From an uncultured Gammaproteobacteria bacterium (GTDB lineage: Bacteria > Patescibacteriota > Microgenomatia > UBA8517), in the NCBI GenBank assembly GCA_965231135.1, contig OZ246419.1, forward strand, positions 733,865 through 797,864: 64,000 nucleotides of DNA, in the 5' to 3' direction. Within the stretch, counting starts at the first letter, position 1. The number at the start of each line of letters is the position of its first letter. The notes under the pieces were generated by a model, which made no database searches, was not told where the DNA came from, and was given only the letters and a program-made list of their open reading frames with translations. Below are positions 6,231-44,494 of the stretch, in pieces. A program made the translations under genes and the position numbers.

Positions 6231-6758
6231 GTGTCGAGGTATATGTTAAAACAAGATAAATCAACATTAATAAACGAGCTATCCAAAGACTTCAAGGATG
6301 CTTCTTCTATTTCATTAGTTGATTTCACTGGCATGAATATTGTTGCCCAGCAGGATCTCAAGAAAAAACTTAAAGAGGCAAAAGCACGCATGATTGTTGC
6401 TAAAAATACTTTAATTAAACTTGCAGCAAAGGATGCAAAACTTCCAGAAGATATAATAACTGATGAAATTTTAAGCGGACAAACTGCAGTAGTTTTTGGA
6501 AAAGAAGATGCAGTTTCCCCTATTCAAGCAATTGGAAACTTTGCAAAAGATAATGAAGCTCTTAAATTTAAGGCTGGAATTTTAGATGGAGCTTTTCAGG
6601 ACAAAGCTGGAATGGAAGCAATTTCCAAACTTCCAGGCAAAGAAGCTCTTAAAGGACAAGTTGTTGGCAATATCGCAAGCCCAATGTATATGCTTATTTC
6701 TAATTTGCAAGCGAGTGTTCAGGAATTAATCGGAACACTAACAGCGAAGGTGGGGTGA
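6231..6758 (+). CDS. rplJ: 50S ribosomal protein L10 (probable true start at ATG 6243)
   Basis: ...SLVDFTGMNIVAQQDLKKKLKEAKARMIVAKNTLIKLA... L10 pattern. Confidence 0.85.
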   Translation: MSRYMLKQDKSTLINELSKDFKDASSISLVDFTGMNIVAQQDLKKKLKEAKARMIVAKNTLIKLAAKDAKLPEDIITDEILSGQTAVVFGKEDAVSPIQAIGNFAKDNEALKFKAGILDGAFQDKAGMEAISKLPGKEALKGQVVGNIASPMYMLISNLQASVQELIGTLTAKVG

Positions 6759-6763
6759 TTTAA

Positions 6764-7153
6764 ATGGCAGAAGAAAAAAACAAAGTAACAAAAATAGTTG
6801 ATGAAATTGCAGAACTTACAGTTTTGGAACTTTCAGAACTAAACAAAGCATTGCAGGAGAAACTTGGAGTTACTCCTATGGCAATGGCAGCCCCAGCAGC
6901 AGGAGCCGCATCAGCAGATGCAGAGACAAGCGCAGCAGGAGCAAGCCAAACAGTTGTTATGACAAATGCAGGAGCAAATAAAATAGCTGTCATCAAAGCA
7001 CTTCGAGAAATTAATCCAAACCTTGGATTACAAGAAGCAAAAGCAATGACTGACACAGTTCCAGCAGAAGTACTTAAAGACGCTAAAGCAGAAGATGCTA
7101 AAGGCGCAGCTGATAAATTAAAAGCAGCTGGAGCAACTGTAGAATTAAAATAA
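6764..7153 (+). CDS. rplL: 50S ribosomal protein L7/L12
   Basis: Ala-rich flexible hinge, C-terminal ...KIAVIKALREINPNLGLQEAKAMTD...GATVELK. Confidence 0.9.
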   Translation: MAEEKNKVTKIVDEIAELTVLELSELNKALQEKLGVTPMAMAAPAAGAASADAETSAAGASQTVVMTNAGANKIAVIKALREINPNLGLQEAKAMTDTVPAEVLKDAKAEDAKGAADKLKAAGATVELK

Positions 7154-7195
7154 GAATTTTAATTCTGCGCGCAGAAGACTGCGGTAGAACTTAGA

Positions 7196-7225
7196 AAATC
7201 CCTCAAGAAATTGAGGGATTTTTAA
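7196..7225. terminator. Rho-independent, probably bidirectional, terminator between rplL and the convergent GATase1 gene
   Basis: aaatccctcaa-gaaa-ttgagggattt perfect 11-bp stem, followed by TTTTT on the + strand and TTTTCT on the - strand. Confidence 0.6.
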
Positions 7226-7228
7226 TGG

Positions 7229-8128
7229 TTATTGAGCATTTTGCCATGCAAAACGAAGAAAGTTTGATAGAATTATTTTTGCTTCATCGTTGTATGTTTC
7301 CCCTAAAGCTTTAATATCATCTATTTTTTTATTTTTCTTTTCCAATCTTTGTCTAACATCGTCTTTGTCTAAATAATTCATCATTTGTTCCCTGCTTTTT
7401 TCTGGATGAAATTGGAATCCATAGATTTTTCCAAGTTTAAATCCTTGAACTCCTCTTTCGTTTTCAAGCAGAACTTCACCGCCTTCAGGTAATTTAGTGA
7501 TAGTCATTTCGTGATCTTGAGGCACAAGAAACTCTTCAGGCAAGCCTCTTAAGACAGGATCTTCTCTGCTTCCTGTATAGCGTTTTACATAACTCCAACC
7601 TATTTCCCAGAAATTACTACCCTTTTGTGTTTTTAAATCTTTAAGTTGACCACCTAAAGCTTCGACAATTCCTTCTGCACCGAAGCAAATTCCAAGCAAT
7701 GGAATACGAGCATCGCGGATAGCATATACAAATTGATAAAATTCCTTTCTCCAGTCTTTTATAAGAACTCCTTTCTTAATCTCTCTTGTTTGGGGATTTT
7801 CGTGATCGATGACGCTTGGGCGAGCGATTAACTGACTTCCTGTAATAATAACTGCCTGATAATTATTCAATCTTTCGAAAGGAAGTAATAAATTGGCTTT
7901 GGTAACTGATTTATCTTTATCATCAGGGTGTTTTATTAAATCAATAACTTTTAGAGAAGCATTTTCGAGTATTCGTTTTTTATATTCCGTGTAGGTTTCA
8001 CCATTTTGTCTAGGAGTATCAAATAATCCTCCCGCAATGCTCACATACGGAGTTTGATCAACATTAAAATTGACAATAAGTACATTTGCTGGCCTTACAA
8101 TTTCTTTATCTTCTAGTTTCTCTGGCAT
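7229..8128 (-). CDS. Class-I glutamine amidotransferase-like / peptidase C26 (gamma-glutamyl hydrolase-like) protein
   Basis: Catalytic-triad signatures LLGICFGAEG (nucleophile Cys) and GFQFHPE (His-x-Glu); last gene of the ATP-grasp operon. Confidence 0.7.
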   Translation of the reverse strand: MPEKLEDKEIVRPANVLIVNFNVDQTPYVSIAGGLFDTPRQNGETYTEYKKRILENASLKVIDLIKHPDDKDKSVTKANLLLPFERLNNYQAVIITGSQLIARPSVIDHENPQTREIKKGVLIKDWRKEFYQFVYAIRDARIPLLGICFGAEGIVEALGGQLKDLKTQKGSNFWEIGWSYVKRYTGSREDPVLRGLPEEFLVPQDHEMTITKLPEGGEVLLENERGVQGFKLGKIYGFQFHPEKSREQMMNYLDKDDVRQRLEKKNKKIDDIKALGETYNDEAKIILSNFLRFAWQNAQ

Positions 8129-8132
8129 ACTC

Positions 8133-9020
8133 CTATTTTATCAAAGAATTGAGATATTTTTCTAATTCTGGTAATTCAGGAGAGATACTGGGGTCAAGAG
8201 TTAATCCTGGTCCTCTATTTATTTCAAAAACATAAACTTTTCCTTTTTTATCAATACAAATATCGACTCCAGAAATGTTTAAATCGACAGATTTTGTTCC
8301 TTGTATAGAATAATTTATTAATTCTTTAGAAATATTATTTTTATCTATCCAACCAGCAGAAGATTCTTCATCGTTTACTGAAATTTTGTTTTCAATAATT
8401 TTTCTAGTAGATTCTTCATGAATTCCAACAACTTCATTTCCCATTACAACAATTCGATATTCCTTATCTATTTCAACTTTTTCCTGGAATAAAAATCCGT
8501 TACTTTCATCTTTTTTAAGAAGTTTTTCGAAGTCTGCAATTTCGTTAATTATAAAAAGTCCATTTCTTTTTTGGCTCCATAAATTTTTAGCATAAATTGG
8601 AAAAGCAAAAGATTTCATAATTTCATCTTTTGAATTAATTATTTCTTCTCTGGAAAAATAAAAAGTATTAGGAACTGGAATATTCCCATATGCAATTAGA
8701 AGAAGATTGTTTAGTTTATCTTTGGAGGCGCCTACTTTTTCAAATGTTTTATCGATAAAAGGAATATTATTTTTTAAACAAAAAGTGGCAATTGATCCTG
8801 CCAGTGGAATATAATTTCGGGTTTGACGAAAATAGACAAGATCAAATTCCAACAAGTTTAAATCTCCAACAAAACATTCGATTTTTGAATCTATTATCGA
8901 TATTGATATTTCTGATAATTTTTTTAAAATAAATTTGTTATTTGAATTTTTATTTAAGTAATCGGTAATTTGATTATGTCTTGAAGTTATTTTATTAACC
9001 AAAATCAATATTTTTTTCAT
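8133..9020 (-). CDS. ATP-grasp ligase, divergent RimK-like paralog
   Basis: FPIYAKN (ATP-binding Lys), FQEKVE, YRIVVMGNEVVG, ISGVDICIDKKGKVYVFEINRGPGL (E-x-N Mg site). It lacks the DFRxN..GG motif of its neighbours. Confidence 0.65.
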   Translation of the reverse strand: MKKILILVNKITSRHNQITDYLNKNSNNKFILKKLSEISISIIDSKIECFVGDLNLLEFDLVYFRQTRNYIPLAGSIATFCLKNNIPFIDKTFEKVGASKDKLNNLLLIAYGNIPVPNTFYFSREEIINSKDEIMKSFAFPIYAKNLWSQKRNGLFIINEIADFEKLLKKDESNGFLFQEKVEIDKEYRIVVMGNEVVGIHEESTRKIIENKISVNDEESSAGWIDKNNISKELINYSIQGTKSVDLNISGVDICIDKKGKVYVFEINRGPGLTLDPSISPELPELEKYLNSLIK

Positions 9021-9895
9021 AAACTGACAAAATATTTAATAATTTCTGAAGCGATATTTTTATTTGTATATTTTTCCAATCCTTTAAATTGCGGGCCTAC
9101 ATTTACTTCTAATAAATAAGGCTTACCGTCAATGCCTATCATAATATCAACTCCTGCAATTTCAATTCCTGTTATTTTTGCAGCTTTTTGGGCAATTTCT
9201 TTGATTTCTTTATTTTTTTCTAAATCAAATATTTCTCCAGTTGCCCCTTGGGAAATATTATTTCTGAAATCGCCTTCCGCAGACTTTCTTTTCATTGCAG
9301 CAACAGCTTTAAAACCAACTGTAAAAATTCTCACATCACCGTCATTTGGAATAAATTCACGAAGTAGATATGTCTTCATTGGATTTTTGATCATAATATC
9401 TTTTCCTTCCTGAAAATTATTTATTAAAAACACACCTTTTCCTTGATGCATCTCAGAAATTTTCATGATTGCAGGTAATTTAAAGTTTTTTAACATTAAT
9501 TCAAGATTTTCTTCCGAATAAATTGAATATGTTTTTGGAGAGCGAATTTTATTTTCAAACTGTTTTAAGTAAAACCAACTCTGGATCGGATAATAATTAA
9601 AATTTGGATTTGCAACAACACTGTTTACAATTTTTGTTTTGGTGTTTTTTAATAAAAACTGGCATGCAACGAACCACTCGAGGCGCATTTTCGACTCGAC
9701 TCCGGCACAAAGATAAATCAAATCAAAATCAGAAAGAGATTTGCCGTTTATTGTAGGATTAAAAACTTCACCGTTAGTTTCTATAATTAAATCTTTTGAA
9801 TGACATCCTGTTACTTGATGGCCTAATTTTTGTGCTTCTTCCTGAAATCTAGTTATTTGACTTCCTTTAATTAAACCTACAATTAGAATTTTCAT
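9017..9895 (-). CDS. RimK-like ATP-grasp (alpha-L-glutamate ligase family)
   Basis: PAIMKISEMHQGKGVFLI, DVRIFTVGFKAVAAMKRKSAEGDFRNNISQGATGE, GVDIMIGIDGKPYLLEVNVGP. Confidence 0.75.
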   Translation of the reverse strand: MKILIVGLIKGSQITRFQEEAQKLGHQVTGCHSKDLIIETNGEVFNPTINGKSLSDFDLIYLCAGVESKMRLEWFVACQFLLKNTKTKIVNSVVANPNFNYYPIQSWFYLKQFENKIRSPKTYSIYSEENLELMLKNFKLPAIMKISEMHQGKGVFLINNFQEGKDIMIKNPMKTYLLREFIPNDGDVRIFTVGFKAVAAMKRKSAEGDFRNNISQGATGEIFDLEKNKEIKEIAQKAAKITGIEIAGVDIMIGIDGKPYLLEVNVGPQFKGLEKYTNKNIASEIIKYFVSL

Positions 9896-9898
9896 AAG

Positions 9899-10768
9899 TT
9901 AGCGGGCGTTTTTAATTGCATAATTTAAATATATTTTGGTTATATTTTCTCCAGTTGCCTTTTCCATTCCAACCATCCCAGGAGTGTGATTGACCTCCAA
10001 AATATAGTTTTTATTGTCTTTATCTATTAATACATCAACTCCCGCTACTTCAAGGCCAATTGCATCCATTGCATCTTTTGCTAGTTTCTTTAATTCAGGA
10101 GTTAGAGGGAACAGCTCAACAGAGCCGCCCAAGGAAAAGTTTGCTCTAAAATCCCCTGCTCTTGGAATTCTTCTCATACAATACATTTTTTCTCCAATTA
10201 CTAAAATTCTTAAATCGTATTTATAGTCAATAAAACCTTGAACAAGAATATTTTTTGCAGGATAATTTTCGCGGTCAAATTTATTTATAAAATTTACAAA
10301 TTCGCTATTGTCTTTTACAAGCCACACCTTTCCACCTTTGCCAGCTCTTGAGGATTTCATAACAAGCGGAAAACCCAATTTATCACCCAATCTATATAAA
10401 TCTTTGTATTCGCGAGTACTGAATGTGTCTGGGACAGGAATTTTATGAAGTATTAATTTCAAAATATCATATGACTTATTCATTGAGTATTTTTGAGCAA
10501 AAAGATTATTGTCAAATATTTTTGCTCTTCTATAGCCAAGATAGTCTTTTAAAGATTCAAGAGATTTCATTGTAGAGAATAGCCCGCGAATAATTACAAG
10601 ATCTGAATCCGGAATTTCCGGACTAAAGGAAAATTCGTGACCTTTTTTAAAAAATTTGAAAGAACTAAAATCGATTAATTTAAATTCGTGACCAAGAGCA
10701 AGCGATTCTTCTTTGATCCTTCTTACTTCATCCAAACTTGCCGCTGATGTAATTAAAGTTATTTTCAT
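9899..10768 (-). CDS. RimK-like ATP-grasp (alpha-L-glutamate ligase family)
   Basis: FPLVMKSSRAGKGGKVWLV, DLRILVIGEKMYCMRRIPRAGDFRANFSLGGSVE, GVDVLIDKDNKNYILEVNHTPG. Confidence 0.75.
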   Translation of the reverse strand: MKITLITSAASLDEVRRIKEESLALGHEFKLIDFSSFKFFKKGHEFSFSPEIPDSDLVIIRGLFSTMKSLESLKDYLGYRRAKIFDNNLFAQKYSMNKSYDILKLILHKIPVPDTFSTREYKDLYRLGDKLGFPLVMKSSRAGKGGKVWLVKDNSEFVNFINKFDRENYPAKNILVQGFIDYKYDLRILVIGEKMYCMRRIPRAGDFRANFSLGGSVELFPLTPELKKLAKDAMDAIGLEVAGVDVLIDKDNKNYILEVNHTPGMVGMEKATGENITKIYLNYAIKNAR

Positions 10769-12057
10769 CTTTTTTCAATCCATGGTTTTACTAAAAAGCC
10801 CTGCAGATCTGTTCTACCAATTAAAACTTTAAAAGTCAATTTGCTGCGATCGGAAACCCCCATTGTTGTTTTTATTCTTTTTCCTGCCAATCTTAATGAT
10901 ACATTAATAACAGGCCAATTGTTTTCTCCTAAAGCACTTAATTTTCTTCGATAAAATAAGATTTTTTCTTTCTCTAAAAGTCCTAATTTTTTGGCAAATT
11001 CTCTGTCAATTGAACTACTCCATGCTCCAGTATCTACTTTCGCTAAAACTTTAATCCAGTGGCCATTTGCATCTCTTACTTTAATTTCCTCAGACGCCCC
11101 AATCGTTAAAATACCATCTTTTGCGGCAACGCGATCTGCAAACCTTTCAGCAAAAAGAGCTTTGGCTATATTTACACCATGCTTTTCGTCGCGAACATCC
11201 AAATCTTCTACTCTATCTAATCTTTTTTTGAGGCCTGCCATATTGGCTAACTGAATTTGAAGACCAGGCCGGGCGTTTAATTCCAAAACCATTGGGCCTT
11301 TTTCAGGATCAATAACCATATCAACTCCTGCAAAGCCTAATCCTGAAACAATTGCAGTTTTTACAGCTATTTCCAAAACTTTTGTCCAGTCGGGAATTTT
11401 TATTCCGTGAAGCTTGTGATTTGTTTCCGGTTTAAATTTTATTAATTCTCCATGCCAAATTGCTTTTGTAGTAATTCCTGTTGCTATATCAACTCCTACT
11501 CCAATTGCTCCTTGGTGAAGATTTGCATGACCCCCAGACTCTTTTGTGGGAAGACGGAGCATTGCCATTACAGGAATTTTATTAAAGACAATTACGCGAA
11601 TATCAGGAGTTCCGCGATATGAAAATCTTCTGAAACTTTTATTTCTTCCGACATATTCCTGAACAAAAGCAACATCAGGCTCGTTTTTTAAACTATATGC
11701 GCCCTCTAAAATATCAAGCGTATGAAGTTTTAAATCCGCATCTGTAATTTCTTCACGCTGAGTTGTAAGCCAAACGTCTGGCTTTATTCTTTTTTTAACA
11801 ACAATAATTCCCTCACCTCCAAAGCCGCGGCTGGGCTTTAATGCAAAACTATCTGGAAGAGTTTTCCAATCGAAATCAAAAACTTCCTTTGCATCACGAA
11901 ATTTTTTGTAAACATCCGGGGTCGGAATATCTGCTTTTTTAAGAGTCTTTGCCATTTGCAGTTTTGAGTCAGCAATTCTTCTCGCTTTTGGTGAATTAAG
12001 CGGAGTTAAATATAATTGAGAACGGGCATTTAGCCCTAAAATTGATGAGACTTTCAT
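10765..12057 (-). CDS. Fusion protein: alpha-L-glutamate-ligase-related ATP-grasp (TIGR02291-like) N-terminal domain plus a C-terminal retropepsin-like aspartic protease domain (the so-called ATP-dependent zinc protease family)
   Basis: N-terminus ILGLNARSQLYLTPLNSPKARRIADSKL... and GGHANLHQGAIG match the RimK-related E-ligase family; C-terminus WIKVLAKVDTGAWSSSID carries a DTGA aspartyl-protease motif (nt ~11023-11034). Confidence 0.7.
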   Translation of the reverse strand: MKVSSILGLNARSQLYLTPLNSPKARRIADSKLQMAKTLKKADIPTPDVYKKFRDAKEVFDFDWKTLPDSFALKPSRGFGGEGIIVVKKRIKPDVWLTTQREEITDADLKLHTLDILEGAYSLKNEPDVAFVQEYVGRNKSFRRFSYRGTPDIRVIVFNKIPVMAMLRLPTKESGGHANLHQGAIGVGVDIATGITTKAIWHGELIKFKPETNHKLHGIKIPDWTKVLEIAVKTAIVSGLGFAGVDMVIDPEKGPMVLELNARPGLQIQLANMAGLKKRLDRVEDLDVRDEKHGVNIAKALFAERFADRVAAKDGILTIGASEEIKVRDANGHWIKVLAKVDTGAWSSSIDREFAKKLGLLEKEKILFYRRKLSALGENNWPVINVSLRLAGKRIKTTMGVSDRSKLTFKVLIGRTDLQGFLVKPWIEKR

Positions 12058-12866
12058 TAGCTTCTGATTAATTTTCTAAATCTCCAGAATTCTATAAAAC
12101 GAAGACCGACATATTTTCCTAAAATAAAATCAAAAATTGCAACACCTACAAGAAGAATTTCCGGATTTAGAATTGCAAATCTTTCAAAAGGGGCAAAAGA
12201 TAAAATTAAAAAACTTACAAAAGCCAAAATCAAAGTTTCTGTAGTTAAATTGATAGCTGTTTTGACTGACTTTCCAAGCTGAACTCTTATAAAATCTTCT
12301 GCAAGCAAAATCAAAATAAAAAGAGGCAAAACGGAGATATTCTCAAAATCAATGCCTCCAAAAACTGGAGCTAAAAATAAAACAAGAAGCACACAAACAA
12401 CAACTCCCCATAGAATAAAAGACATACGAGGAAGATACTGAAGATGAATTTTTAATTTGCGAAGAGCAAAACGAACAATACTTGCGATACCAATTATTAA
12501 TAAAAATAAACCAATTCCAAAAAGAGGGCCAATAGTTACGAACACAACCGATAAAGCTGCTGGTAAGAAAATTCCAAAGGAACGAACTCCAAGAAGATGT
12601 CTAACACCAGCAATAAAAGCGGTGACAACAGTTAATAATAGAAGAAGAGAAACTGTTTTTGCCGAAACTCCGCTTACAACAGCGCCGTGAATTACATATT
12701 TAATTGGATTAAGCCAAACATTACCAAGCTGCTGACTTTTTAGAACGGAATCAAGATTAACATTTTGCGATTGAAAGGATTGAATTGCAGGAAAATCAAA
12801 AACAAAAAGGCCCAAAAGGAAACCAAGAAAAGTTGCTGCAACAAGAATTAGCAGGAAATTCTTCAT
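12057..12866 (-). CDS. Polytopic (about 7-9 TM) membrane protein, 7TM-transglutaminase-associated type without the transglutaminase domain
   Basis: 269 aa, almost entirely hydrophobic helices; an acidic LLAEDFIRV segment inside the membrane region; its start ATG at 12057 is shared with the stop of the downstream ligase gene. Confidence 0.55.
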   Translation of the reverse strand: MKNFLLILVAATFLGFLLGLFVFDFPAIQSFQSQNVNLDSVLKSQQLGNVWLNPIKYVIHGAVVSGVSAKTVSLLLLLTVVTAFIAGVRHLLGVRSFGIFLPAALSVVFVTIGPLFGIGLFLLIIGIASIVRFALRKLKIHLQYLPRMSFILWGVVVCVLLVLFLAPVFGGIDFENISVLPLFILILLAEDFIRVQLGKSVKTAINLTTETLILAFVSFLILSFAPFERFAILNPEILLVGVAIFDFILGKYVGLRFIEFWRFRKLIRS

Positions 12867-12878
12867 GCATATATTATA

Positions 12879-13094
12879 CTATTCTTTATTTGTCATTCCT
12901 AGCATCCAGAGGACTGCTTCTTTTTTATAGCGACGATCACCGCGAGAATTTATTCGGATTGGTGTTAATTTGCCGCGTTTTCCCCATCTTTTGATGGTTA
13001 AAACTGAAACTCTTAGTAGATCTGCAACTTCTCTTACTGTTAAAAGATCTGGAAGGTCTTCTAACTTGATTTTCTTCTTTGTAGTTTGATCCAT
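12879..13094 (-). CDS. Small HTH DNA-binding protein (excisionase / MerR-type HTH_17-like)
   Basis: LTVREVADLLRVSVLTIKRWGKRGKLTPIRINSRGDRRYKKEAV helix-turn-helix pattern; first gene of the ATP-grasp operon. Confidence 0.7.
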   Translation of the reverse strand: MDQTTKKKIKLEDLPDLLTVREVADLLRVSVLTIKRWGKRGKLTPIRINSRGDRRYKKEAVLWMLGMTNKE

Positions 13095-13112
13095 TTTTAT
13101 AGTATTCCCTGC

Positions 13113-13128
13113 CTAAGTATTATCTTAG
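13113..13128. promoter_or_regulatory. Inverted repeat ctaag-N6-cttag in the promoter region of the HTH gene (candidate operator)
   Basis: ctaagtattatcttag; a third ctaag half-site lies at 13144-13148. Confidence 0.3.
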
Positions 13129-13165
13129 TTAATCAGACTATAACTAAGGAGTGCAAGGACTGTCA

Positions 13166-13870
13166 ATGGGCAAATTTAATTGTTACAATCAATTTATGTT
13201 GCAATTTTTACAAAAACACAAGAAAGCAATTATTATTGTGGCTATTTTAATATTCACAACTATTTCTATTTGGTATTTGAACAGGCATCATGTGTTTAAT
13301 CGAAGAGAATTGCGAGAGTTGCAAAATAATATCAAATCTTATGGAAGCTTTTCTGCAGTGGCAATTATTGTTTTAGTTCTAATTAGTACACTTGTTCCTC
13401 CCCTTCCCATACCAGTACCGCTTGTGGAAATTGTTTGCGGACTGATTTTTGGTTTTATTCCCGGAATGATTATTAATTATTTGGCACAAATTATTTCTTC
13501 TTCAATTGCCTTTTATTTAGCGAGAATTTTAGGAAGAAAGTTTTTTAGAAAAATTTTGGATAACAAGATTTTCACGTCTTATAAAAAATATATTAACAAA
13601 AACGGCTCCGTGGCAGTTCTGACATTGCGGGCAACAATTGGTGCACCATTTAATATGGTGAGTTTTTTAGCTGGGCTCACTGAAATGAACTTCAAGAGTT
13701 TTCTAATTGCTACTCTACTCGGTTGCATCCCAGAAGTAATACTTTTTACTTTTATAGGAAATGCGTTACAAACATCTAGATTTAGAATCTCTTACGTATT
13801 TTTGTTTGTAATACTACTAGGAGGAGTTGGAATGCTTACAACTCTCTGGGTGTTAAGACGTAAAAAATAA
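13166..13870 (+). CDS. TVP38/TMEM64 (DedA/SNARE-associated) family membrane protein
   Basis: Multi-TM with ...AVLTLRATIGAPFNMVSFLAGLT... typical of DedA proteins; ATG at 13166 or 13196. Confidence 0.65.
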   Translation: MGKFNCYNQFMLQFLQKHKKAIIIVAILIFTTISIWYLNRHHVFNRRELRELQNNIKSYGSFSAVAIIVLVLISTLVPPLPIPVPLVEIVCGLIFGFIPGMIINYLAQIISSSIAFYLARILGRKFFRKILDNKIFTSYKKYINKNGSVAVLTLRATIGAPFNMVSFLAGLTEMNFKSFLIATLLGCIPEVILFTFIGNALQTSRFRISYVFLFVILLGGVGMLTTLWVLRRKK

Positions 13871-14988: not shown

Positions 14989-16227
14989 TTATGCAACGCG
15001 GTCTTTGAGTGCCTTATAATATTTAACTAAATATTCTTGGGCAAGATCCCAGTTGCCGACTTGTCTTTGGTTTTCAGCTAATACACGCAGATGTGCAGCT
15101 TTTTTGGCCTGAAATTCCGAAATGCGATATGTTTCTGCCAATAAATCAGTTTGTGCTTCTTCATCTGCTTTATTCTGCCAGGATTTTATTTCAAGAGATG
15201 CAACAATTGTTGGCTCAAAAGCTAATTTGACTTCATCTTTTATGAGTTTATAGAATTTTGCTAATTTAATTCCTGCCTTTTTCCAATCTTTTTGATCTCC
15301 TTCTGCAACTGCTCCGATCATGTAAATTGCTGCTTCTTTTGCAAGCTTAGTTGATAATCCAAATTGTTCTTTAATATGTTCATAAGCATATTCACTAAAC
15401 TTTTTTCCTTCTGGAATATTTTTTAATCTCCACCAATTGATTTCGAATTTGGCTGCAACTTCAGGACGAAATCTTAAATGATCTTCTTTATCGTTCCCCC
15501 CAAACCTTCTTCGACGCCTTGAATAATCTAAAATTGCATCGCGAAGTTTTTCTGGAGTAAAGTCTGGCAAATGATCTGCTTCCCAATAAGTTTCTGCATA
15601 TGCGGATTGCCACAAAAGCAAACCGCTTGTTCTTTGTTCTCCTGAAGTTCTAATTAATAGATCAACGTAAGGATAGGGCTGTCCTTTTGTATCTAAGTAT
15701 TTTTCAAATGTTTCTTTAGATATATCTTCAGGTTTGAGATTATCTTTAATCATATTTTGGGTTGCACGAATAATGTCATCATATCCTCCATGATCAAGAG
15801 CTATATTGCCAATAAAAGTTTTGTTATCTTTGGTTATTTCTTCCGCCTGCACTATTTTTTTAACTAAAGGCTTTGGTAAACGGTCTTTTCTTCCTAAATG
15901 AATTATTCTAACGTCTTCCTCCATTGCTTCTTTTAAATATTGGTCTATCAATCTTTCATAAAGCTTCATTAAATAAGCAATTTCTTTTGGAGTGCGATCC
16001 CAATTTTCTGTTGAAAAACCCCAAATAGTAAAAGTGTGAACTCCCAGCTGGCGCGAAGCTCGAGCAAGCTTTAAAACAGTATCAAAACCTTTTTTATGAC
16101 CTTCAAGAGTGTACAATCCCCGAGCGCGAGCCCAGCGACGATTGCCGTCTGGAACAATGGCAATGTGGTTTGGAACTAAAGTTCCTTTTGGGAGATTGAT
16201 TCTTGAATCAGCCATCTTCTTGGGCAT
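14989..16227 (-). CDS. uppS: Undecaprenyl-diphosphate synthase (cis-isoprenyl transferase) with a roughly 190-aa C-terminal extension
   Basis: HIAIVPDGNRRWA and DLLIRTSGEQRTSGLLLWQSAY signatures; start taken at MPKKMADSR (16227) to avoid overlapping the divergent NUDIX gene. Confidence 0.85.
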   Translation of the reverse strand: MPKKMADSRINLPKGTLVPNHIAIVPDGNRRWARARGLYTLEGHKKGFDTVLKLARASRQLGVHTFTIWGFSTENWDRTPKEIAYLMKLYERLIDQYLKEAMEEDVRIIHLGRKDRLPKPLVKKIVQAEEITKDNKTFIGNIALDHGGYDDIIRATQNMIKDNLKPEDISKETFEKYLDTKGQPYPYVDLLIRTSGEQRTSGLLLWQSAYAETYWEADHLPDFTPEKLRDAILDYSRRRRRFGGNDKEDHLRFRPEVAAKFEINWWRLKNIPEGKKFSEYAYEHIKEQFGLSTKLAKEAAIYMIGAVAEGDQKDWKKAGIKLAKFYKLIKDEVKLAFEPTIVASLEIKSWQNKADEEAQTDLLAETYRISEFQAKKAAHLRVLAENQRQVGNWDLAQEYLVKYYKALKDRVA

Positions 16228-16269
16228 GGAAATAATTATATCACAGCATGTCCATGTTATAATTTTAAA

Positions 16270-16710
16270 ATGCAACTTTTAGCTGGTGTTGCCATATTTA
16301 AAAATAATAAGGTTTTACTCTTAAAAAACGTAGGCGGCGGCGATCAAAATGATAAATGGGGTCCACCAGCTGGACACGGTGAAGCAAACGAAACAACAGA
16401 AGAAACAGCTATTCGTGAAGCTAAAGAAGAAACAAATCTAGATGTGGAACTTTTAGGAATTATACAAGTTGGATATTTTAACTATCATGCAAAAGATTAT
16501 TTATATGTTTTTTATTTAGCTAAAGCCAAAGATTTATCCAAAATAAATCTACAGAAAGAAGAGGTATCTGAATACATTTGGGCAAGTAAACAAGATTTAT
16601 TGAAAAATAAATATGAGTTTAGAAAAGAGTTTTTAAAAGAACCAATTTTACTTTCATTCGAACAAAAACCTTCGAAAAACAATTTATTTAAAATATATAC
16701 TGTAAAATAG
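16270..16710 (+). CDS. NUDIX hydrolase
   Basis: Nudix box GPPAGHGEANETTEETAIREAKEETNL (GX5EX7REUXEEXGU). Confidence 0.8.
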   Translation: MQLLAGVAIFKNNKVLLLKNVGGGDQNDKWGPPAGHGEANETTEETAIREAKEETNLDVELLGIIQVGYFNYHAKDYLYVFYLAKAKDLSKINLQKEEVSEYIWASKQDLLKNKYEFRKEFLKEPILLSFEQKPSKNNLFKIYTVK

Positions 16711-38323: not shown

Positions 38324-41300
38324 ATGAGTAAACTGCCCCGAAATAAATATATCTCCATTAATGAAGCTGCAATAAAACTTGGAGTATCTACTAAAACCTT
38401 AAGAAGATGGGAAGTTGCTGGAAAACTTATTGCAGTAAGAACTAATGGCGGCCACAGAAGATATGAAATTTCAAAACTTACAGAGTTAAAGATAAATGGT
38501 TTTAAGACGCCAAGAAAAGAATATATAAAGAAAATTGTTGTTAATCAAACTGTTAGTGATACCCCGAAAATAATTAAGATAGATAATATAGTAGAACCTC
38601 TTAAAATAAACCCTAATATCATCACTGAAGCATTACCTACTCCAATAGATATATATAATGCCCCAACGCTTGCACCTCAGCAAAAAAATATTCTAAAAAT
38701 AGTTGGTTTTTCTTTTTTTGGTTTTATTTTGATTGCAGGAGTATTTAAAATTTCTCCCGCAGTAATCTCCGCAACGAACTTATTCAAAGCTAATGCGGAT
38801 AATATTGCGGTAAATTACTTTCCAGGTATGCCTGGTGCTGTTAAAAGTTTTTTAAGCTCCAGGAATAATAATTTTGCGGATAATAAAGATGTGGCCTCAA
38901 AATTTGGACAAAATGTCCAAGTTTTGGCAGCAGAGACAAAAGCTAATGTCCCGGTTTTTAATGTAAACATTGAGTCTTCTTTTAAACAAGTTGCGGATTT
39001 TGTAAAGGGTTTAACATCAACCGATGTTTCAACTGGAACGCTGGAAGCATCAGACAATGCAACTTTTGCAAAAAATGTTGATATATCAGGCGATTTGACT
39101 TCATCAAGTGCAACATTTAATTTATTACCAAAAAACGTAACATCTCTTAATATCGGACTTACCTCAACTACAACAAGTATTTCAGCAACAACCGGTACTA
39201 CTACTATTAATAATGATTTAAATGTTAAAGGTGCCACCGCTCTTTCTGGTGCTCTTAATGTCGGTGGTAAGATTACAGGAAGCGGAGATTTAGCAATTTC
39301 GGGAGCAAGCGTATTGTCTGGAGCTTTAAATGTTTCTGGAGTGACGACACTTGCATCAGACCTCTCAGCGGCAGGAAACGCAACATTTGGCAATATTACT
39401 AAAGTTAATGGAGTGACTTATTCATTTCCTACAACTCAAGGAGCAGGCGGATCTACGTTAACTAATGACGGTTCGGGAAATCTCAGTTGGGTTAGCGGAA
39501 GTGGCAGTGGAACAATCGGTTTTTGGACAAGAACTGGAACAATATTAACACCAGCTACTGAAGGAGACACAATAGCAACTACCGGACAAATTGGAGCAGG
39601 AACAACAACACCAAGCTACCAGCTTGATATACAAAACCCAATTTCAGCCAACAACGGTATTCTTGCCAACTTTGCTTTATCAAATTCAAATACCGGAGCT
39701 GGAATCATTACAAACGGTATAAACGTATCTGCAACCGGGTCTATTCCAGCGAGCGGAACTAATACGAATAACCTTATTAATCTTTCAGCAATAACTGCTG
39801 GAAGTAATACTTTTAATGGAATAAATTTTGGTTCAGGTTTATCAAACTATATAAATAGTACAAATTTCATTGTCACTGCCGCTGGAGCAGAGACCCTTAA
39901 TTCTTCTTTGGTTGCAGTTGGAGTAAATGCCCAAAGCGGACTTCTTCAAGGCACAGGTGGACTAACTTTAACTGGGACAACAAATATAAATAGTACAGGA
40001 GTTGCAAATACTACTGTTGGTAATACAAGTGGAACGCTTGCTTTATCTTCTAACGCTTTTAACCTTGATACTTCAGGAAATATAACAGGAGTTCCAAGCT
40101 TAGATACAATCAACGTTTCATCTACTGCCTTAACATTTGCAGGAGCTGGAACAATTGATTCAGGAACAGCAAACGCTCTCAATCTTGGGACGGGAAATAA
40201 CGCAAAAACCATAAACATTGGAACAGGAAATGCTGGCAATATTATTAATATAGGAACAAATGATACAACCGCTGATGCAATTAATATTGCAAGCGCAAAA
40301 GACACCACTACACTTGCAGGCAACATTAGTCTTACTAATTTATCACTTGGCACTGGAAGTGCTTTGTGTTTAGATGGATCAAACAATTTAGTAACATGTA
40401 CTACTGGAACAGGCGGTATTTCTGGAAGCGGTGCAAGCGGACAAATTGCATATTATAACGGGGCAAGTAGCATTACAGGGAATAATAGTTTTTTCTGGAA
40501 TACGGCAACCACACAGCTCGGAATCGGAACAAATTCAACAACAGCTGGAGTTACTATTGCTGAAAATAGCGGTGACTTAATTGATGCTGGAACAACATCA
40601 AGCACTAAATTTACTCTTGATAATTCTGGAAACATTTTAGTTTCTCCTTCAACAAGATATGATACATTAACTTCCGGAACTCTTGGCGTCGGAACAACAA
40701 ACGCCACAACAGTAAACGTAGGAAACCTGAGCTCAACTACAAATTTAATTGGGGCAACAAATATTAATACAACAGGAAGCGGAAATACAACGATCGGCAA
40801 CGGAAGCGGAACTGTGGCTTTAAATCTGGGATCTGATGCAACTGGAGATATTTATTACAGAAATTCCGGTGGAACCTTAAGTAGACTAGGGATTGGATCG
40901 TCAGGACAAACATTAACAGTTTCAGCTGGAATCCCAAGCTGGGTTGGAGGCTCTGGAGGGACTGGAAGCTCGGGTTTTTGGAGTAGGACATCAGGGGGTG
41001 TTTTATCACCTGCAACAGCAACAGATACATTCAATCTAGCTCCTAATACAACAAACGGAACTGGAGTGAACGCTGGATTTAATTTGCAAGCAAACTCATT
41101 AACAAGTGGAAACGCTGTTGACATATCAAGCAGCTCAATAACAAGCGGTAATTTATTATCACTTTCTTCTACTTCAACGGCTTTTACATCTGGAGCAATT
41201 GCAAACCTCAGCTGGTCACCAAGTGCTTCAACAACTGCAACTGGAGATTTATTAAAACTTAATGTTGGTTCTAATGGAATTTTAGGTAATATTCTTGATG

Positions 41301-44300
41301 TACAAAATAATGGTTCAACTATATTTGGAGTGAGCCAAACTCAAATAATAGCTGCTCTTCCAACACAGTTCACTGCAGCTGGAGATGTTGGATTTGCATA
41401 CGATGTTAATTTTACAAATCCGGTTGCAAGTAATATCAAGTCCAGTTCTAATCTTAATATTGCTGCTGGCGAAACATTTAATTCATCAGATCTGACTTTG
41501 ACAACATATAATGCCGGAAATATTTTACTAAATACAGGTACAAGCTCGACAGGAAACGGGAAAGTTGGAATTGGGCCGTCAGTTACCCCCACTTCCTTAC
41601 TTACAGTAAACAATGCAAATGAATTATCAAACATAGGACAATCATTAGCTTTATTTAATCAGACTGAAAATCAAGATATTATGACCGCCAGCAATTCAGG
41701 GACAACAAGATGGACACTTGGATATCAAGGAAATATAACGGGAACTGCGGTAAATACCAGCGGCAACAGCTATAGTTACACGAATACAGCACTTAATACA
41801 ACAAGCGCAAATCTTCAGGCACTGGCATTTACAAATGCTGCATCAAGCGGAAGCATAACAGTAAGCGGAGAAAATATAACTGCAACAGGAACTGCAACTT
41901 CTGGAACAAACACTAACAATCTAGTAAATTTAAGTGTTGCAGCTGCGGCAAGTAATAACACATTTAATGGTATTAATTTTGGAAGCAATTTAACTAACTA
42001 TATAAATGGAACAAATTGGGTGGTAACAGCAGCAGGAAATGAAACGATAGCAGGAATAAATGTCACAGGACTTACAGCAAACTCAGCTGTATATACTGAT
42101 GGAAGCAAGAATTTAACAACATCAGCCCCAAGCTCTGGAGCTCTTGGATATTGGACTAGAACAGGAACTACACTCTCACCTACTACAAGCGGTGATGCTG
42201 TGACAACTTCTGGAAATATTTCTACAACTGGGTCAGGAACTATAACTAGCGCGTCAGATCTGGCGGTTAACGGATCAAATTTCACAAGTAGTTCAAGCTC
42301 GTTTAACCTACTGAATTCAACCCCAACAACTATTAATTTTGGGGGAAATGCTACAACTGCACTTAATATCGGCAATGGAAATAGTGCCTACACTGCAATA
42401 AACTTTGGAAGTGGAACCGGAGGCAATACAATTGGTATTGGAAATGGAGCTAACACAGGAGCGCAAACGATTAATATCGCTGCTGGAGCAGCAGGGGCAA
42501 ATTCAACAGTAAATATTTTATCAGGAATTGCAACTTCCGGGACACAGACACTTAATCTTGGAACAGGAGCTTCTGCAAAAACAGTAAACATCGGTAATTC
42601 AACAGGCGCGACAGCACTGAATTTCACAAGCGGTACAGGAGCTCAAACATTTGCATCAAGTGTTGTAACTGGCACGACAACCTCTGGAGCATTTGCATTC
42701 AATGCAAACTCTTTGACAACTGGCGATGGACTTTATCTTAATTCGTCTAGCATAACAACAGGCAATCTGCTAAATATCACATCTACCTCCACTGCTTTCA
42801 CTTCAGGTAATTTGGCAAGCATTTATTGGAACCCAGGATCTTCTACTACTGCAACTGGAGATTTATTAAAACTTAATGTTGGTTCTAATGGAATTTTAGG
42901 TAATATTCTTGATGTACAAAATAATGGTTCAACTATATTTGGAGTAAGCCAAACTCAAATTTCAAATAATTTACCAGTTTCATTTAATGCTCCTGGAGAT
43001 ATTGTTGATGCATATGACTTTTCATTTACGAATCCAGTTTCAAGCAACATAAAATCTTCTGCTCCGCTTACTATTGCAGCTGGCGAAATATTTAATTCTT
43101 CTAATTTGACTTTAACTACATATAATCTTGGAAATATATTATTAAATAGTGGAACAAGTACGGGTGGAAACGGACTTGTTGGAATTGGCCCTTCAGTATC
43201 TCCTACTTCACTTTTAACAGTTGATAATACCAATGAATTGTCGACAATCGGCCAATCTCTTGTACTTCTTAATCAAACAGAAAGCCAAGATATTTTAACA
43301 GCAAGCAATTCAGGAACAACAAGATTTAAGATAAATTCTGCTGGAAACACATTTACAACTCTAAGAAGTACAGGAACTGCAGCACTTTGTCATACTACAA
43401 ACGGAGCAGGATTTGATGAAATAACAGATTGTTCTGGAACTCCAGCTGCAGATTATGCTGAGTTTTATCCAACAGACGGAAGCGTTGATTATGGCGATAT
43501 CGTTGCTCCAAGCAGCCAAACCGTAACAACTAAAGTAAGCGACGGTCAAGGAGGAATAATTACCGGACAAACACAGCAAACTTCAGTTTTAACAAAGTCT
43601 AGTTTAGCTTATCAAGGAAATGTGATCGGAATAGTATCGAATAACTATAATGACTTTACATCAACCGGATACAATATAGTTGATCCTTCAAATAATCCAA
43701 AGCCAGTTGCTCTTAATGGACGTGTTCCCGTAAAAATTGCAACAGATTCTCCTGAGATTGCTCCAGGAGATTATCTTACAACTAGCGATCAACCTGGACG
43801 CGCAACTAAAGCTACACAAGCCGGAAGAGTTATTGGTATGGCACTTGAAAACTGGAGCTCTTCAAGCGGCAAAGATACAGTATTGGTTTTTGTAAATAAT
43901 ACCTGGTACGATCCTAACGCTGATGCAATCGCTGCAACAGGAAGCGCACAACTAAACAACATTGCATTAATGCTTCAAGATAGCTTTACAGCAAGCGATA
44001 GCGGAATTATTGCAAACTTACACGAGCTTGATACTGCAAAATTGAATGTACTTGGAGATACGACTTTGGGAGATACAGTTGTAAACGGCAAGCTTAATGT
44101 TGGCGGATTGACATTTGATGATACTAATCAATCAATAAATGCAATAGGCGTTTTGAAAATTCAAGACTTAGCTTTGGGAAATGTTGAATTTATGAACGGA
44201 CTGATAACTTTTGATACAAACGGAAATGCAAAGTTCCAATCTGTTACTGCTAATAAATATAATGTTGCTGGAACATCGGCTGGAACAGGCACAATTACAG

Positions 44301-44494
44301 CTGGAGCAACAAATGTTATTATTAATACTAATGCTGTTAACAACAGCTCTTTAATCTTTGTAACCGCAAGCACAGCAACAAGCAAGGTTTTAGCGGTAAC
44401 AACAAAGGTTCAAGGAACAAGTTTTACAGTTTCGATTCCGACAGCAGACATCAATAATATTAATTTCAATTGGTGGATTGTTGACAAACAATAA
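38324..44494 (+). CDS. Giant (2056 aa) membrane-anchored repetitive Ser/Thr/Gly/Asn-rich protein with an N-terminal cytoplasmic HTH (excisionase/MerR-type) domain, one TM helix, and a long beta-helix-like repeat region
   Basis: HTH YISINEAAIKLGVSTKTLRRWEVAGKLIAVRTNGGHRRYEI (nt ~38345-38500); TM ILKIVGFSFFGFILIAGVF (nt ~38690-38747); internal duplicated modules; a non-repetitive Cys-containing C-terminal domain (~43.3-44.5 kb). Confidence 0.75.
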   Translation: MSKLPRNKYISINEAAIKLGVSTKTLRRWEVAGKLIAVRTNGGHRRYEISKLTELKINGFKTPRKEYIKKIVVNQTVSDTPKIIKIDNIVEPLKINPNIITEALPTPIDIYNAPTLAPQQKNILKIVGFSFFGFILIAGVFKISPAVISATNLFKANADNIAVNYFPGMPGAVKSFLSSRNNNFADNKDVASKFGQNVQVLAAETKANVPVFNVNIESSFKQVADFVKGLTSTDVSTGTLEASDNATFAKNVDISGDLTSSSATFNLLPKNVTSLNIGLTSTTTSISATTGTTTINNDLNVKGATALSGALNVGGKITGSGDLAISGASVLSGALNVSGVTTLASDLSAAGNATFGNITKVNGVTYSFPTTQGAGGSTLTNDGSGNLSWVSGSGSGTIGFWTRTGTILTPATEGDTIATTGQIGAGTTTPSYQLDIQNPISANNGILANFALSNSNTGAGIITNGINVSATGSIPASGTNTNNLINLSAITAGSNTFNGINFGSGLSNYINSTNFIVTAAGAETLNSSLVAVGVNAQSGLLQGTGGLTLTGTTNINSTGVANTTVGNTSGTLALSSNAFNLDTSGNITGVPSLDTINVSSTALTFAGAGTIDSGTANALNLGTGNNAKTINIGTGNAGNIINIGTNDTTADAINIASAKDTTTLAGNISLTNLSLGTGSALCLDGSNNLVTCTTGTGGISGSGASGQIAYYNGASSITGNNSFFWNTATTQLGIGTNSTTAGVTIAENSGDLIDAGTTSSTKFTLDNSGNILVSPSTRYDTLTSGTLGVGTTNATTVNVGNLSSTTNLIGATNINTTGSGNTTIGNGSGTVALNLGSDATGDIYYRNSGGTLSRLGIGSSGQTLTVSAGIPSWVGGSGGTGSSGFWSRTSGGVLSPATATDTFNLAPNTTNGTGVNAGFNLQANSLTSGNAVDISSSSITSGNLLSLSSTSTAFTSGAIANLSWSPSASTTATGDLLKLNVGSNGILGNILDVQNNGSTIFGVSQTQIIAALPTQFTAAGDVGFAYDVNFTNPVASNIKSSSNLNIAAGETFNSSDLTLTTYNAGNILLNTGTSSTGNGKVGIGPSVTPTSLLTVNNANELSNIGQSLALFNQTENQDIMTASNSGTTRWTLGYQGNITGTAVNTSGNSYSYTNTALNTTSANLQALAFTNAASSGSITVSGENITATGTATSGTNTNNLVNLSVAAAASNNTFNGINFGSNLTNYINGTNWVVTAAGNETIAGINVTGLTANSAVYTDGSKNLTTSAPSSGALGYWTRTGTTLSPTTSGDAVTTSGNISTTGSGTITSASDLAVNGSNFTSSSSSFNLLNSTPTTINFGGNATTALNIGNGNSAYTAINFGSGTGGNTIGIGNGANTGAQTINIAAGAAGANSTVNILSGIATSGTQTLNLGTGASAKTVNIGNSTGATALNFTSGTGAQTFASSVVTGTTTSGAFAFNANSLTTGDGLYLNSSSITTGNLLNITSTSTAFTSGNLASIYWNPGSSTTATGDLLKLNVGSNGILGNILDVQNNGSTIFGVSQTQISNNLPVSFNAPGDIVDAYDFSFTNPVSSNIKSSAPLTIAAGEIFNSSNLTLTTYNLGNILLNSGTSTGGNGLVGIGPSVSPTSLLTVDNTNELSTIGQSLVLLNQTESQDILTASNSGTTRFKINSAGNTFTTLRSTGTAALCHTTNGAGFDEITDCSGTPAADYAEFYPTDGSVDYGDIVAPSSQTVTTKVSDGQGGIITGQTQQTSVLTKSSLAYQGNVIGIVSNNYNDFTSTGYNIVDPSNNPKPVALNGRVPVKIATDSPEIAPGDYLTTSDQPGRATKATQAGRVIGMALENWSSSSGKDTVLVFVNNTWYDPNADAIAATGSAQLNNIALMLQDSFTASDSGIIANLHELDTAKLNVLGDTTLGDTVVNGKLNVGGLTFDDTNQSINAIGVLKIQDLALGNVEFMNGLITFDTNGNAKFQSVTANKYNVAGTSAGTGTITAGATNVIINTNAVNNSSLIFVTASTATSKVLAVTTKVQGTSFTVSIPTADINNINFNWWIVDKQ
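41235..41346 (+). repeat. 112-nt direct repeat (copy 1) inside the giant gene, part of a roughly 1.6-kb diverged internal duplication
   Basis: Identical to 42849-42960 except one mismatch (gtgagcc vs gtaagcc); encodes GDLLKLNVGSNGILGNILDVQNNGSTIFGVSQTQI. Confidence 0.85.
42849..42960 (+). repeat. 112-nt direct repeat (copy 2)
   Basis: See copy 1; the flanking protein sequence is about 70% identical over roughly 500 aa. Confidence 0.85.

Follow-up and report, generated by a model that had tools for sequence, protein, structure and literature searches.

A membrane protein and a ligase-retropepsin fusion at the core of a modular ATP-grasp gene cluster of Patescibacteria

We analysed a cluster of minus-strand genes (positions 7229-13094) in a 64,000-nucleotide stretch of contig OZ246419.1 (GenBank assembly GCA_965231135.1), referred to below as the window, from an uncultured member of the Patescibacteria (GTDB lineage Patescibacteriota; Microgenomatia; UBA8517). 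The cluster encodes a small helix-turn-helix (HTH) protein, a seven-transmembrane (7TM) protein, an ATP-grasp ligase fused to a retropepsin-like protease, three further ATP-grasp ligases and a protein with the class I glutamine amidotransferase (GATase) fold. Comparison with related genomes reveals that the unit is modular and not a fixed six-gene operon, its invariant core being the 7TM and fusion genes. With an even chance of being right, we propose that the encoded proteins may together synthesise and trim a peptide of the oligo-glutamate type in the cytoplasm, in association with the membrane, as the Patescibacteria form of the Rlo/Rim ligase-plus-retropepsin systems with lineage-specific tailoring. 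The parts and the core logic are already known from systems of the Rlo/Rim kind. Several features appear to be undescribed in the literature searched: a retropepsin fused C-terminally to a ligase of the RloC type, a 7TM partner without transglutaminase, the near-universal occurrence of the two as a pair in Patescibacteria, the modular ligase and tailoring arrays, and a dedicated GATase family.

The RimK-related cassette was reportedly first predicted by Iyer et al. in 2009. It consists of a TIGR02291 ligase, a PF14402 7TM protein and a PF05618 retropepsin, and is now named RloABC in Pseudomonas aeruginosa (Lormand et al. 2025, mBio, PMC12239564). There, losing the three RloA paralogues leads to hypo-osmotic lethality and to defects of shape, biofilm formation and beta-lactam response, and deletion of rloB or rloC suppresses the defects of RloA loss; RloA, which was assayed with SUMO-(Glu)n-GFP reporters, cuts runs of at least eight glutamates via K46, R114 and R137, its in-vivo substrate and the RloC product remain unknown, and 96% of RloB matches were reported from Proteobacteria (PMC12239564). 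In the related Rim system, RimB trims polyglutamylated RpsF and stimulates poly-alpha-glutamate synthesis by RimK, and an active hybrid, RimBK, with N-terminal RimB and C-terminal RimK, exists (Little et al. 2025, JBC, PMC11957791).

Conservation of the core pair in Patescibacteria

The locus set comprised 74 species-representative genome loci, nine contig loci and the window (labels L001 etc.), and their open reading frames (ORFs) were labelled by phmmer, jackhmmer and Pfam. The fusion gene is present in 80 loci, 77 of which have upstream sequence available, and in all 77 the 7TM gene lies directly 5' of it on the same strand (75 found by greedy gene calling; L053 and L054 added after inspection). 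The pair occurs in Woese-, Shapiro-, Moran-, Kaiser-, Dojka-, Collier-, Beckwith- and Saccharibacteria. The fusion family is very large in Patescibacteria, with 6655 database matches at E <= 1e-10; each of the best 120 is a full-length fusion, at 64-76% identity, and identity among relatives of the 7TM protein is 53-79%. Some of the database relatives carry a Saccharimonadales annotation, and an exact-sequence search with the fusion protein of the window returned no recorded contig. Within 10 kb of the fusion genes, no retropepsin was detected as a separate protein; each of the 80 matches to this domain was a fusion protein. The fusion and the missing transglutaminase, which a preliminary description of this DNA had listed as rearrangements, are the standard Patescibacteria form and nothing special to the window. 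The same description had treated six genes as one operon; these genes do occur together in the window, and the core pair is conserved, but the genes downstream of it differ between genomes.

The number of further ATP-grasp ligases encoded after the fusion gene varies from zero to four. At least one is found 3' of it in 59 of 80 loci, in 54 by jackhmmer and in five with only a 480-residue family of the ATP-grasp_3 type, which sometimes carries a C-terminal domain of about 300 residues that is weakly Fem/GNAT-like. Recurrent accessory genes encode an S-adenosylmethionine (SAM) methyltransferase (10 loci), a MATCAP/DUF1704-type HExxxH carboxypeptidase (11 loci) and a PBP1A-like protein (9 loci); others encode GNAT (seen in L006), GH18 and MnmA proteins, and a GT4 glycosyltransferase gene follows the cassette genes in L039.

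Some of the variable genes deserve a separate description. In eight loci (L002, L006, L042, L078, L080-L083) a protein of 755-801 residues without a Pfam assignment is encoded after the fusion gene; its N-terminal part of about 480 residues is homologous to the 480-residue ATP-grasp_3 family, and its C-terminal part of about 300 residues is also found as separate ORFs (L061, L048). This C-terminal domain gave no PDB match, and weak FemAB_like/GNAT matches (best E 3.7e-4) in three of eight members. In L080-L083 the gene right after that for the large protein encodes the GATase, or else a methyltransferase with the GATase following; in L079 a 482-residue form of the family stands in this place. 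A conserved ORF of about 190-200 residues, with no Pfam match, lies within the ligase array of Woesebacteria loci L001, L005, L008, L009 and L075 and is absent from the window. Shapirobacteria-type loci (L033, L041, L044, L069, L072 and others) have, on the opposite strand 5' of the 7TM gene, tandem arrays of five to six paralogous genes of about 120 residues matching T4SS_pilin (PF18895).

The ligase-retropepsin fusion protein

The fusion protein (10765-12057; 430 residues, to which residue numbers below refer) starts with an ATP-grasp ligase domain of the RloC/TIGR02291/PF14397 type (residues 1-300; 11158-12057) and ends with a retropepsin-like domain (residues ~320-430; 10765-11100) carrying the catalytic DTGA at residues 342-345 (11023-11034). 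It scored 222 bits against PF14397 (E 1e-65, cut-off 31.4) and 275.6 bits against TIGR02291 (E 4.5e-82, 289 of 317 profile positions), which is under the equivalog cut-off of 314.2. In an alignment of the 80 fusion sequences, from which active-site conservation was read, the ligase residues K74, D246, E259 and N261 are kept in 78, the remaining two being N-terminally truncated. Comparison of the AlphaFold2 (AF2) model (mean predicted local distance difference test, pLDDT, 75.7) placed the ligase fold nearest to ArgX/LysX (with LysW), RimK (with RpsF), cyanophycin synthetase and PsnB, all of which ligate onto peptide or protein carboxylates. The ligase fused to a retropepsin, as first described, is confirmed.

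The single sequence scored 20.7 against PF05618, under the Pfam cut-off of 27. The profile of the fusion family matches RimK over the ligase domain and, over residues 336-428, the PF05618-type retropepsin-like structures 9g59 (E 6e-8), 9g58 and 2pma, the first two of which we take to be RloA-type structures. The catalytic motif reads DTG or DSG in 70 of the 80 fusion proteins. By the 9g59 alignment, RloA residues K46, R114 and R137 correspond in the window protein to K340, W381 and R404. Where the catalytic aspartate is intact, as in 71 proteins, the equivalents are K or R in 70, R in 67 and R or K in 70, and in the nine proteins with an aspartate-to-asparagine change the first two polyglutamate-coordinating positions are decayed. 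Therefore, most of the family probably retains a polyglutamate-type substrate channel. Neither a signal peptide nor a transmembrane segment occurs between the ligase and protease domains, unlike in the secreted protease of RloABC.

The 7TM protein and its co-variation with the protease

The 7TM protein (12057-12866; 269 residues) scored 65.2 bits against PF14402 (E 8e-18, cut-off 25). It matched the RloB model of 508 positions at 301-507 only, with 54 bits against a cut-off of 900, and therefore carries no transglutaminase domain, in agreement with the first description. Its extracytoplasmic loop measures about 45 residues, and the inactive transglutaminase domain of RloABC-type cassettes is missing. 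The AF2 model is all-helical (pLDDT 76.7), and searches with it found no solved structural relative. The C-terminal tail (...GLRFIEFWRFRKLIRS) is cytoplasmic by the positive-inside rule, and it is basic both in the window (...RFRKLIRS) and in 67 other loci.

A different situation is found in a subset of the related loci. A MATCAP-like gene is present in nine of the ten loci whose fusion protein lacks DTG/DSG versus two of the 70 with the motif (Fisher p ~2e-9). In these nine loci (L053, L054, L059-L062, L065, L066 and L071) the retropepsin motif reads NTG, NTA or DTN, and the 7TM tails end in ...ETEE, ...DQEE, ...EEQE, ...DPEE or ...EELEEE. The joint occurrence of protease aspartate loss, MATCAP and an acidic 7TM end gives a Fisher p of ~3e-9; the loci represent roughly two independent lineages, and both p-values overstate the support. 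The pattern is absent from the lineage of the window, and so is MATCAP from the window itself.

A C-terminal Glu-Glu is the determinant by which RpsF serves as a RimK acceptor, and TTL and MATCAP act on the ...EEY tail of tubulin. The appearance of MATCAP where the retropepsin motif is lost fits the logic of a ligase with an antagonistic peptidase, and the sequences suggest that in the co-varying clade the 7TM tail may be the ligase acceptor and that MATCAP may replace the retropepsin as the eraser. Nothing relevant was found in the literature searched on links between bacterial MATCAP and ATP-grasp proteins or on this cassette in Patescibacteria.

Accessory ligases and GATase

The three genes downstream of the fusion encode RimK-like ligase 1 (9899-10768; 289 residues), RimK-like ligase 2 (9017-9895; 292 residues) and a divergent ATP-grasp ligase 3 (8133-9020; 295 residues). 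Their matches to PF08443 (RimK) have E values of 4e-32, 4e-33 and 2e-13, respectively, and ligase 3 also matches R2K_2. Against TIGR00768 (cut-off 143.4), ligase 1 reaches 144.4 bits, ligase 2 stays just under the cut-off with 132.7, and ligase 3 has 48.8; against the RimK equivalog PRK10446 all three reach only 23-78 bits (cut-off 331). Ligase 1 aligns end to end with RimK 7qyr (E 3e-19), including the pre-ATP-grasp domain, and shares 31% identity with ligase 2 and 23% with ligase 3. A DFRxN motif is found in ligases 1 (DFRAN) and 2 (DFRNN) and is absent from ligase 3; the Mg/ATP motif GVD...E(V/I)N is present in all three (GVD...EVN in ligase 1, GVD...EIN in ligase 3). Orthologues of ligases 1 and 2 (>260 bits) lie 3' of the fusion in only two of 79 other loci (L005 and L020), and ligase 3 orthologues (139-199 bits) occur in about 15 loci, typically as the last ligase before rplL in Woesebacteria. 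Thus, the three extra ligases are present and RimK-like, as proposed for the operon, but across the loci they belong to a variable accessory set.

The GATase-fold protein (7229-8128; 299 residues) scored 60.2 bits against PF00117 (E 3e-16, cut-off 22.8) and 30.5 bits against Peptidase_C26 (PF07722; E 4e-7, cut-off 20.5). Among solved structures, TM1158 and GMP synthase subunit A come closest, and on their catalytic Cys and His/Glu the motifs GICFG (residues 146-150) and FHPE (240-243) are superimposed. The N-terminal region, of about 125 residues, is unusually long. The family is small, with about 15 full-length relatives of 31-37% identity, and a search of the 74 species-representative loci gave no member. 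The five relatives that were looked up all lie inside the cassette, each after an ATP-grasp protein of about 480-800 residues; a GATase after RimK-type ligases occurs only in the window. Judging from these matches, the protein is probably closer to GuaA-type amidotransferases than to C26 hydrolases, and the roles of ammonia donor and of hydrolase would both fit. The GATase1 fold and its Cys-His-Glu triad are upheld, and the hydrolytic trimming by a C26-like enzyme that had been suggested is one of two readings, the closer likeness being to the GuaA type.

Proposed function

In the reading we prefer, an oligo-glutamate-type peptide is made and trimmed at the membrane. As homology and the specificity residues would predict, the fusion protein may use ATP to build an alpha-linked acidic chain of the oligo- or poly-glutamate type on the inner membrane face, where it would associate with the 7TM protein's basic loops and tail, which are cytoplasmic and conserved. 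The retropepsin domain of the same protein, for which dimerisation is a requirement, would cut the chain and so set its length and turnover, and by analogy with RimB and RimK might also stimulate the ligase. Ligases 1-3 may extend or diversify the chain, as their distinctness and the variable arrays of other genomes would indicate. The GATase could either give ammonia to amidate a ligase-activated carboxylate or hydrolyse gamma-glutamyl or amide bonds. The acceptor would most likely be free glutamate or an oligopeptide, or a protein or envelope carboxylate, none being encoded as a precursor gene. By analogy with the rlo phenotypes, the physiological role might be envelope or osmotic homeostasis. 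Of what had been proposed earlier, the homology to the RimK-related cassette is real (TIGR02291, PF14402, PF05618), and a poly-glutamate-type chemistry finds support in that homology and in the conserved RloA-type residues.

Several points weigh against this proposal. The ligase domain lacks the RimK N-domain (pre-ATP-grasp) and stays under the TIGR02291 cut-off (275.6 vs 314.2), so that a glutamate specificity is something we infer mainly from the protease domain. In that domain, W381 occupies the position equivalent to R114, and two of the three positions are kept in the window. No transporter or enzyme fold is recognisable in the 7TM protein, whose role is a guess. The methyltransferase, GNAT, Fem-like domain and amidotransferase suggest a product more elaborate than plain polyglutamate. 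The chemistry assigned to all members is a prediction from sequence. For co-transcription, the support consists of gene packing and consensus sites.

The alternative that survives best, although unlikely, is that the cluster makes a small free peptide metabolite or osmolyte. Stand-alone L-amino-acid ligases would then act in sequence, with amidation by the GATase, the 7TM protein serving as exporter or sensor, and acetylation or methylation being added in other genomes. The N-acetylglutaminylglutamine amide (NAGGN) pathway, which combines a GNAT, the ATP-grasp ligase Ngg and the amidotransferase AsnO, offers an analogy. The accessory set of ligases, SAM methyltransferase, GNAT, weakly Fem-like domain and amidotransferase fits this explanation, and the three extra ligases are old paralogues, which implies distinct specificities; the GATase is GuaA-like, and rlo mutants show osmotic phenotypes (PMC12239564). 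However, so variable an accessory set argues against a single defined product, an endoprotease built into the ligase and carrying polyglutamate-type binding residues makes little sense for a di- or tripeptide, and a transporter fold is missing from the 7TM protein.

The next explanation, which we consider improbable, is a reversible modification of protein tails, in which the ligases would add glutamate, and perhaps other residues, to a protein C-terminus and the retropepsin or MATCAP would remove them. Candidate acceptors would be the 7TM protein with its cytoplasmic tail, the HTH protein encoded beside it (...KE/...KEE) and ribosomal protein S6. RimK acts in this way on RpsF (PMC11957791), and protein C-termini are where the structural neighbours ArgX/LysX and RimK work. 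For the 7TM tail, cytoplasmic by the positive-inside rule, the co-variation of aspartate loss, MATCAP gain and acidic end in nine loci is in favour, but the tail is basic in the window and in 67 other loci, and the co-variation comes from about two lineages. For the HTH protein, the homologues next to the cassette end in ...EE in nine of 13 cases and in ...E in two of 13; against this, only 17 of 38 HTH representatives with short tails end in D or E, five of them with two acidic residues, and the HTH gene lies near the cassette in just 13 of 82 loci. The case for the HTH protein as a conserved EE-tailed acceptor is therefore weak, its tails being variable across the wider family. As to S6, there is no rpsF in the window.

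A more specific and still more doubtful version of this idea is a writer/eraser "tail code", in which the ligases would glutamylate and further modify the cytoplasmic 7TM tail, or that of a different protein, for instance the HTH, and the retropepsin or MATCAP would erase the mark, gating the membrane protein. If true, Patescibacteria would widely possess a prokaryotic equivalent of the tubulin tyrosination/polyglutamylation cycle, and the roles of RloB and RloC in Pseudomonas would be hinted at as well.

Similarly improbable is the possibility that the product is an envelope component, with amino acids added at the cytoplasmic face to a lipid-linked peptidoglycan, teichoic-acid-like or polysaccharide precursor, the 7TM protein acting as scaffold or flippase and the GATase amidating like MurT/GatD. 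The lineage of the window has UppS and DedA/VTT genes upstream, PBP1A-like genes follow the ligases in nine loci, GH18 occurs in several and GT4 in L039; PF14397 is named 'sugar-transfer associated', and rlo mutants have cell-shape and beta-lactam phenotypes (PMC12239564). However, such neighbours vary by lineage and none is universal, and the specificity residues of the protease favour polyglutamate over stem peptides.

A graspetide or other ribosomally synthesised and post-translationally modified peptide (RiPP) cluster, or an anti-phage defence system, is very improbable and was rejected: graspetide clusters occur in candidate phyla radiation (CPR) bacteria (PMC8939145) and the ligases weakly match maturase models, but at 18-33 bits versus cut-offs of 230-425 (133-144 for the RimK family), no room is left for a precursor gene, and PADLOC finds only a generic HTH match.

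For the product and the substrate of Rlo, the Patescibacteria version may serve as a natural experiment. The protease is welded to a cytoplasmic ligase, which allows both to act in a single compartment; the cassette can do without the transglutaminase domain but always keeps the 7TM module; and the retropepsin can give way to a carboxypeptidase of the MATCAP type, where the 7TM tail is acidic as well. The fusion architecture, the 7TM retention and the MATCAP swap narrow the possible mechanisms and give acceptor candidates. The cassette is among the better-conserved multi-gene modules of these reduced genomes, which suggests an important function where biosynthetic pathways are few.

Gene layout and cluster boundaries

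The minus-strand ORFs lie exactly where the preliminary description had placed them, and the profile searches uphold the domain assigned to each. From the HTH gene to the GATase gene, the junctions are a 12-nucleotide gap, overlaps of one and four nucleotides, a three-nucleotide gap, a four-nucleotide overlap and a four-nucleotide gap. With gaps and overlaps of only a few nucleotides, no further gene or precursor ORF fits inside the cluster by coordinates and sequence, and the reported lack of a precursor gene is borne out.

A hairpin with a 13-bp stem and a four-nucleotide loop (7194-7223) separates the cluster from the convergent rplL (6764-7153, plus strand). It has an A-run and a T-run on either side, so that termination is possible on both strands, and it is a probable bidirectional terminator. 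At the other end, a promoter-like TTGACA-18-TATAGT (13166-13137, minus strand) agrees with the consensus at 11 of 12 positions and is the best of 29 sites in the scanned region of 6.5 kb (6900-13400). It lies in the divergent intergenic region common to the HTH gene and a DedA/VTT-like gene (13151-13870, plus strand). The cluster thus lies between a terminator-like hairpin and a promoter-like site, in line with the earlier description; sites were scored as consensus matches only, and the totals of promoter-like and terminator-like sites are not above shuffled expectation. The gene packing and the boundary signals fit one transcription unit, and co-transcription is plausible.

HTH protein and ribosomal protein neighbours

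The HTH protein (12879-13094; 71 residues, C-terminus ...GMTNKE) was assigned by profile searches to MerR_1/HTH_17, BldC-like, without an effector domain. The full MerR-family layout, with a dimerisation helix and an effector-binding domain, is absent, and the BldC model gave 40.6 against a cut-off of 77. An HTH gene is found near the cassette in 13 of 82 loci, where it is nearly invariant; it lies directly 5' of the 7TM gene in five of the 13 (L077, L078, L080, L081 and the window), and in others an ATP-binding cassette (ABC) exporter gene on the opposite strand stands between. The suggestion that the HTH protein is the cassette's own regulator therefore gains a conserved neighbour, but in only 13 loci and often with the exporter gene in between, and it is unproven.

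Over about 60 residues, the HTH protein hardly differs from genome to genome, while the corresponding fusion proteins share only 62-75% identity. An exhaustive HMMER search of its family gave 127 cluster representatives at E <= 1e-10. Some of the relatives are long, with three to eight tandem domain copies (e.g. P0283, 623 residues with eight matched stretches).

On the other side of the cluster, the convergent rplL-rplJ neighbourhood is kept in at least 19 loci. Across lineages, rplJ(L) and the cassette stay adjacent in three relative orientations: they converge in Woesebacteria, run in the same direction in WS6 (L063) and diverge in Dojkabacteria (L066). This adjacency could simply be inherited synteny. 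Of the earlier suggestion of a ribosomal target, the adjacency to rplJ-rplL holds as a conserved feature; a connection with such a target was not detected. As local candidates, ribosomal protein S6 was rejected, rpsF being absent from the window, and so were RplL and RplJ as acidic-tail acceptors, since their C-termini (...VELK and ...AKVG) are not acidic. The usual bacterial order is rplJ-rplL followed by rpoB-rpoC; in the window, rplJ-rplL (6231-7153, plus strand) is followed by the convergent ligase cluster, and there is no rpoB-sized ORF after rplL.

Other features of the window

An UppS-like prenyltransferase ORF (14989-16275, minus strand) encodes 428 residues, a typical UppS being about 170 residues shorter. 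Relatives of 410-424 residues occur upstream of the cassette in L077, L078, L080 and L081, and the ORF adjoins the DedA/VTT-type membrane protein gene in L077 and in the window.

A stretch in which the guanine-plus-cytosine content rises to 0.39-0.44, versus ~0.33 elsewhere, holds three very large ORFs in the same direction (38324-58741, plus strand; 2056, 2582 and 2157 residues), and a TPR protein gene follows (58784-60829). The second and third each contain DUF2341 and six Laminin_G_3/ConA-like domains and are therefore probably surface proteins. The sole Pfam match of the first (38324-44494, 2056 residues) is a MerR-type HTH at residues 11-56, leaving some 2000 residues without an assignment, which is an odd architecture for a DNA-binding domain.

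Comparison with known systems

The closest known system is RloABC. In both, a TIGR02291-like cytoplasmic ATP-grasp protein (RloC), a PF14402 module (RloB) and a PF05618 retropepsin (RloA) are encoded in one cluster, and the retropepsin carries DTG and polyglutamate-coordinating basic residues. In contrast to RloABC, the window protease lacks a signal peptide and forms the C-terminal part of the ligase protein, and so it is cytoplasmic; the 7TM protein has no periplasmic inactive transglutaminase domain; the ligase is under the TIGR02291 equivalog cut-off; one to four additional ligases, together with tailoring enzymes, are encoded 3'; and the hosts are Patescibacteria.

With RimK, RimB and RimBK the cluster shares a cytoplasmic, here predicted, glutamate ligase paired with or fused to a retropepsin, and ligases 1 and 2 resemble the RimK family over their full length, at scores just above and just below its cut-off. 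In RimBK, however, the protease is N-terminal on a true RimK, whereas in the window it is C-terminal on an RloC-type ligase without the RimK N-domain. Given the reversed domain order and the RloC-type ligase, the fusion is independent of RimBK. The cassette also has an obligate 7TM partner, and no RpsF link was found.

Ligase and amidotransferase pairs are known from NAGGN synthesis (Ngg/AsnO), MurT/GatD and carbamoyl-phosphate synthetase. As in these, an ATP-dependent carboxylate-activating ligase is encoded beside a possible ammonia-supplying GATase; the window GATase differs in its family, which is distinct, GuaA-like and extended by a long N-terminal region, and for which the role of a C26-type hydrolase is equally possible. 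Finally, the tubulin tyrosination cycle (TTL and MATCAP) may be compared by analogy only, since the window has no MATCAP and the candidate acceptor would be a bacterial membrane protein; what the subset of related loci shares with it is that an ATP-grasp ligase, a MATCAP-family HExxxH peptidase and an ...EE tail are encoded together.

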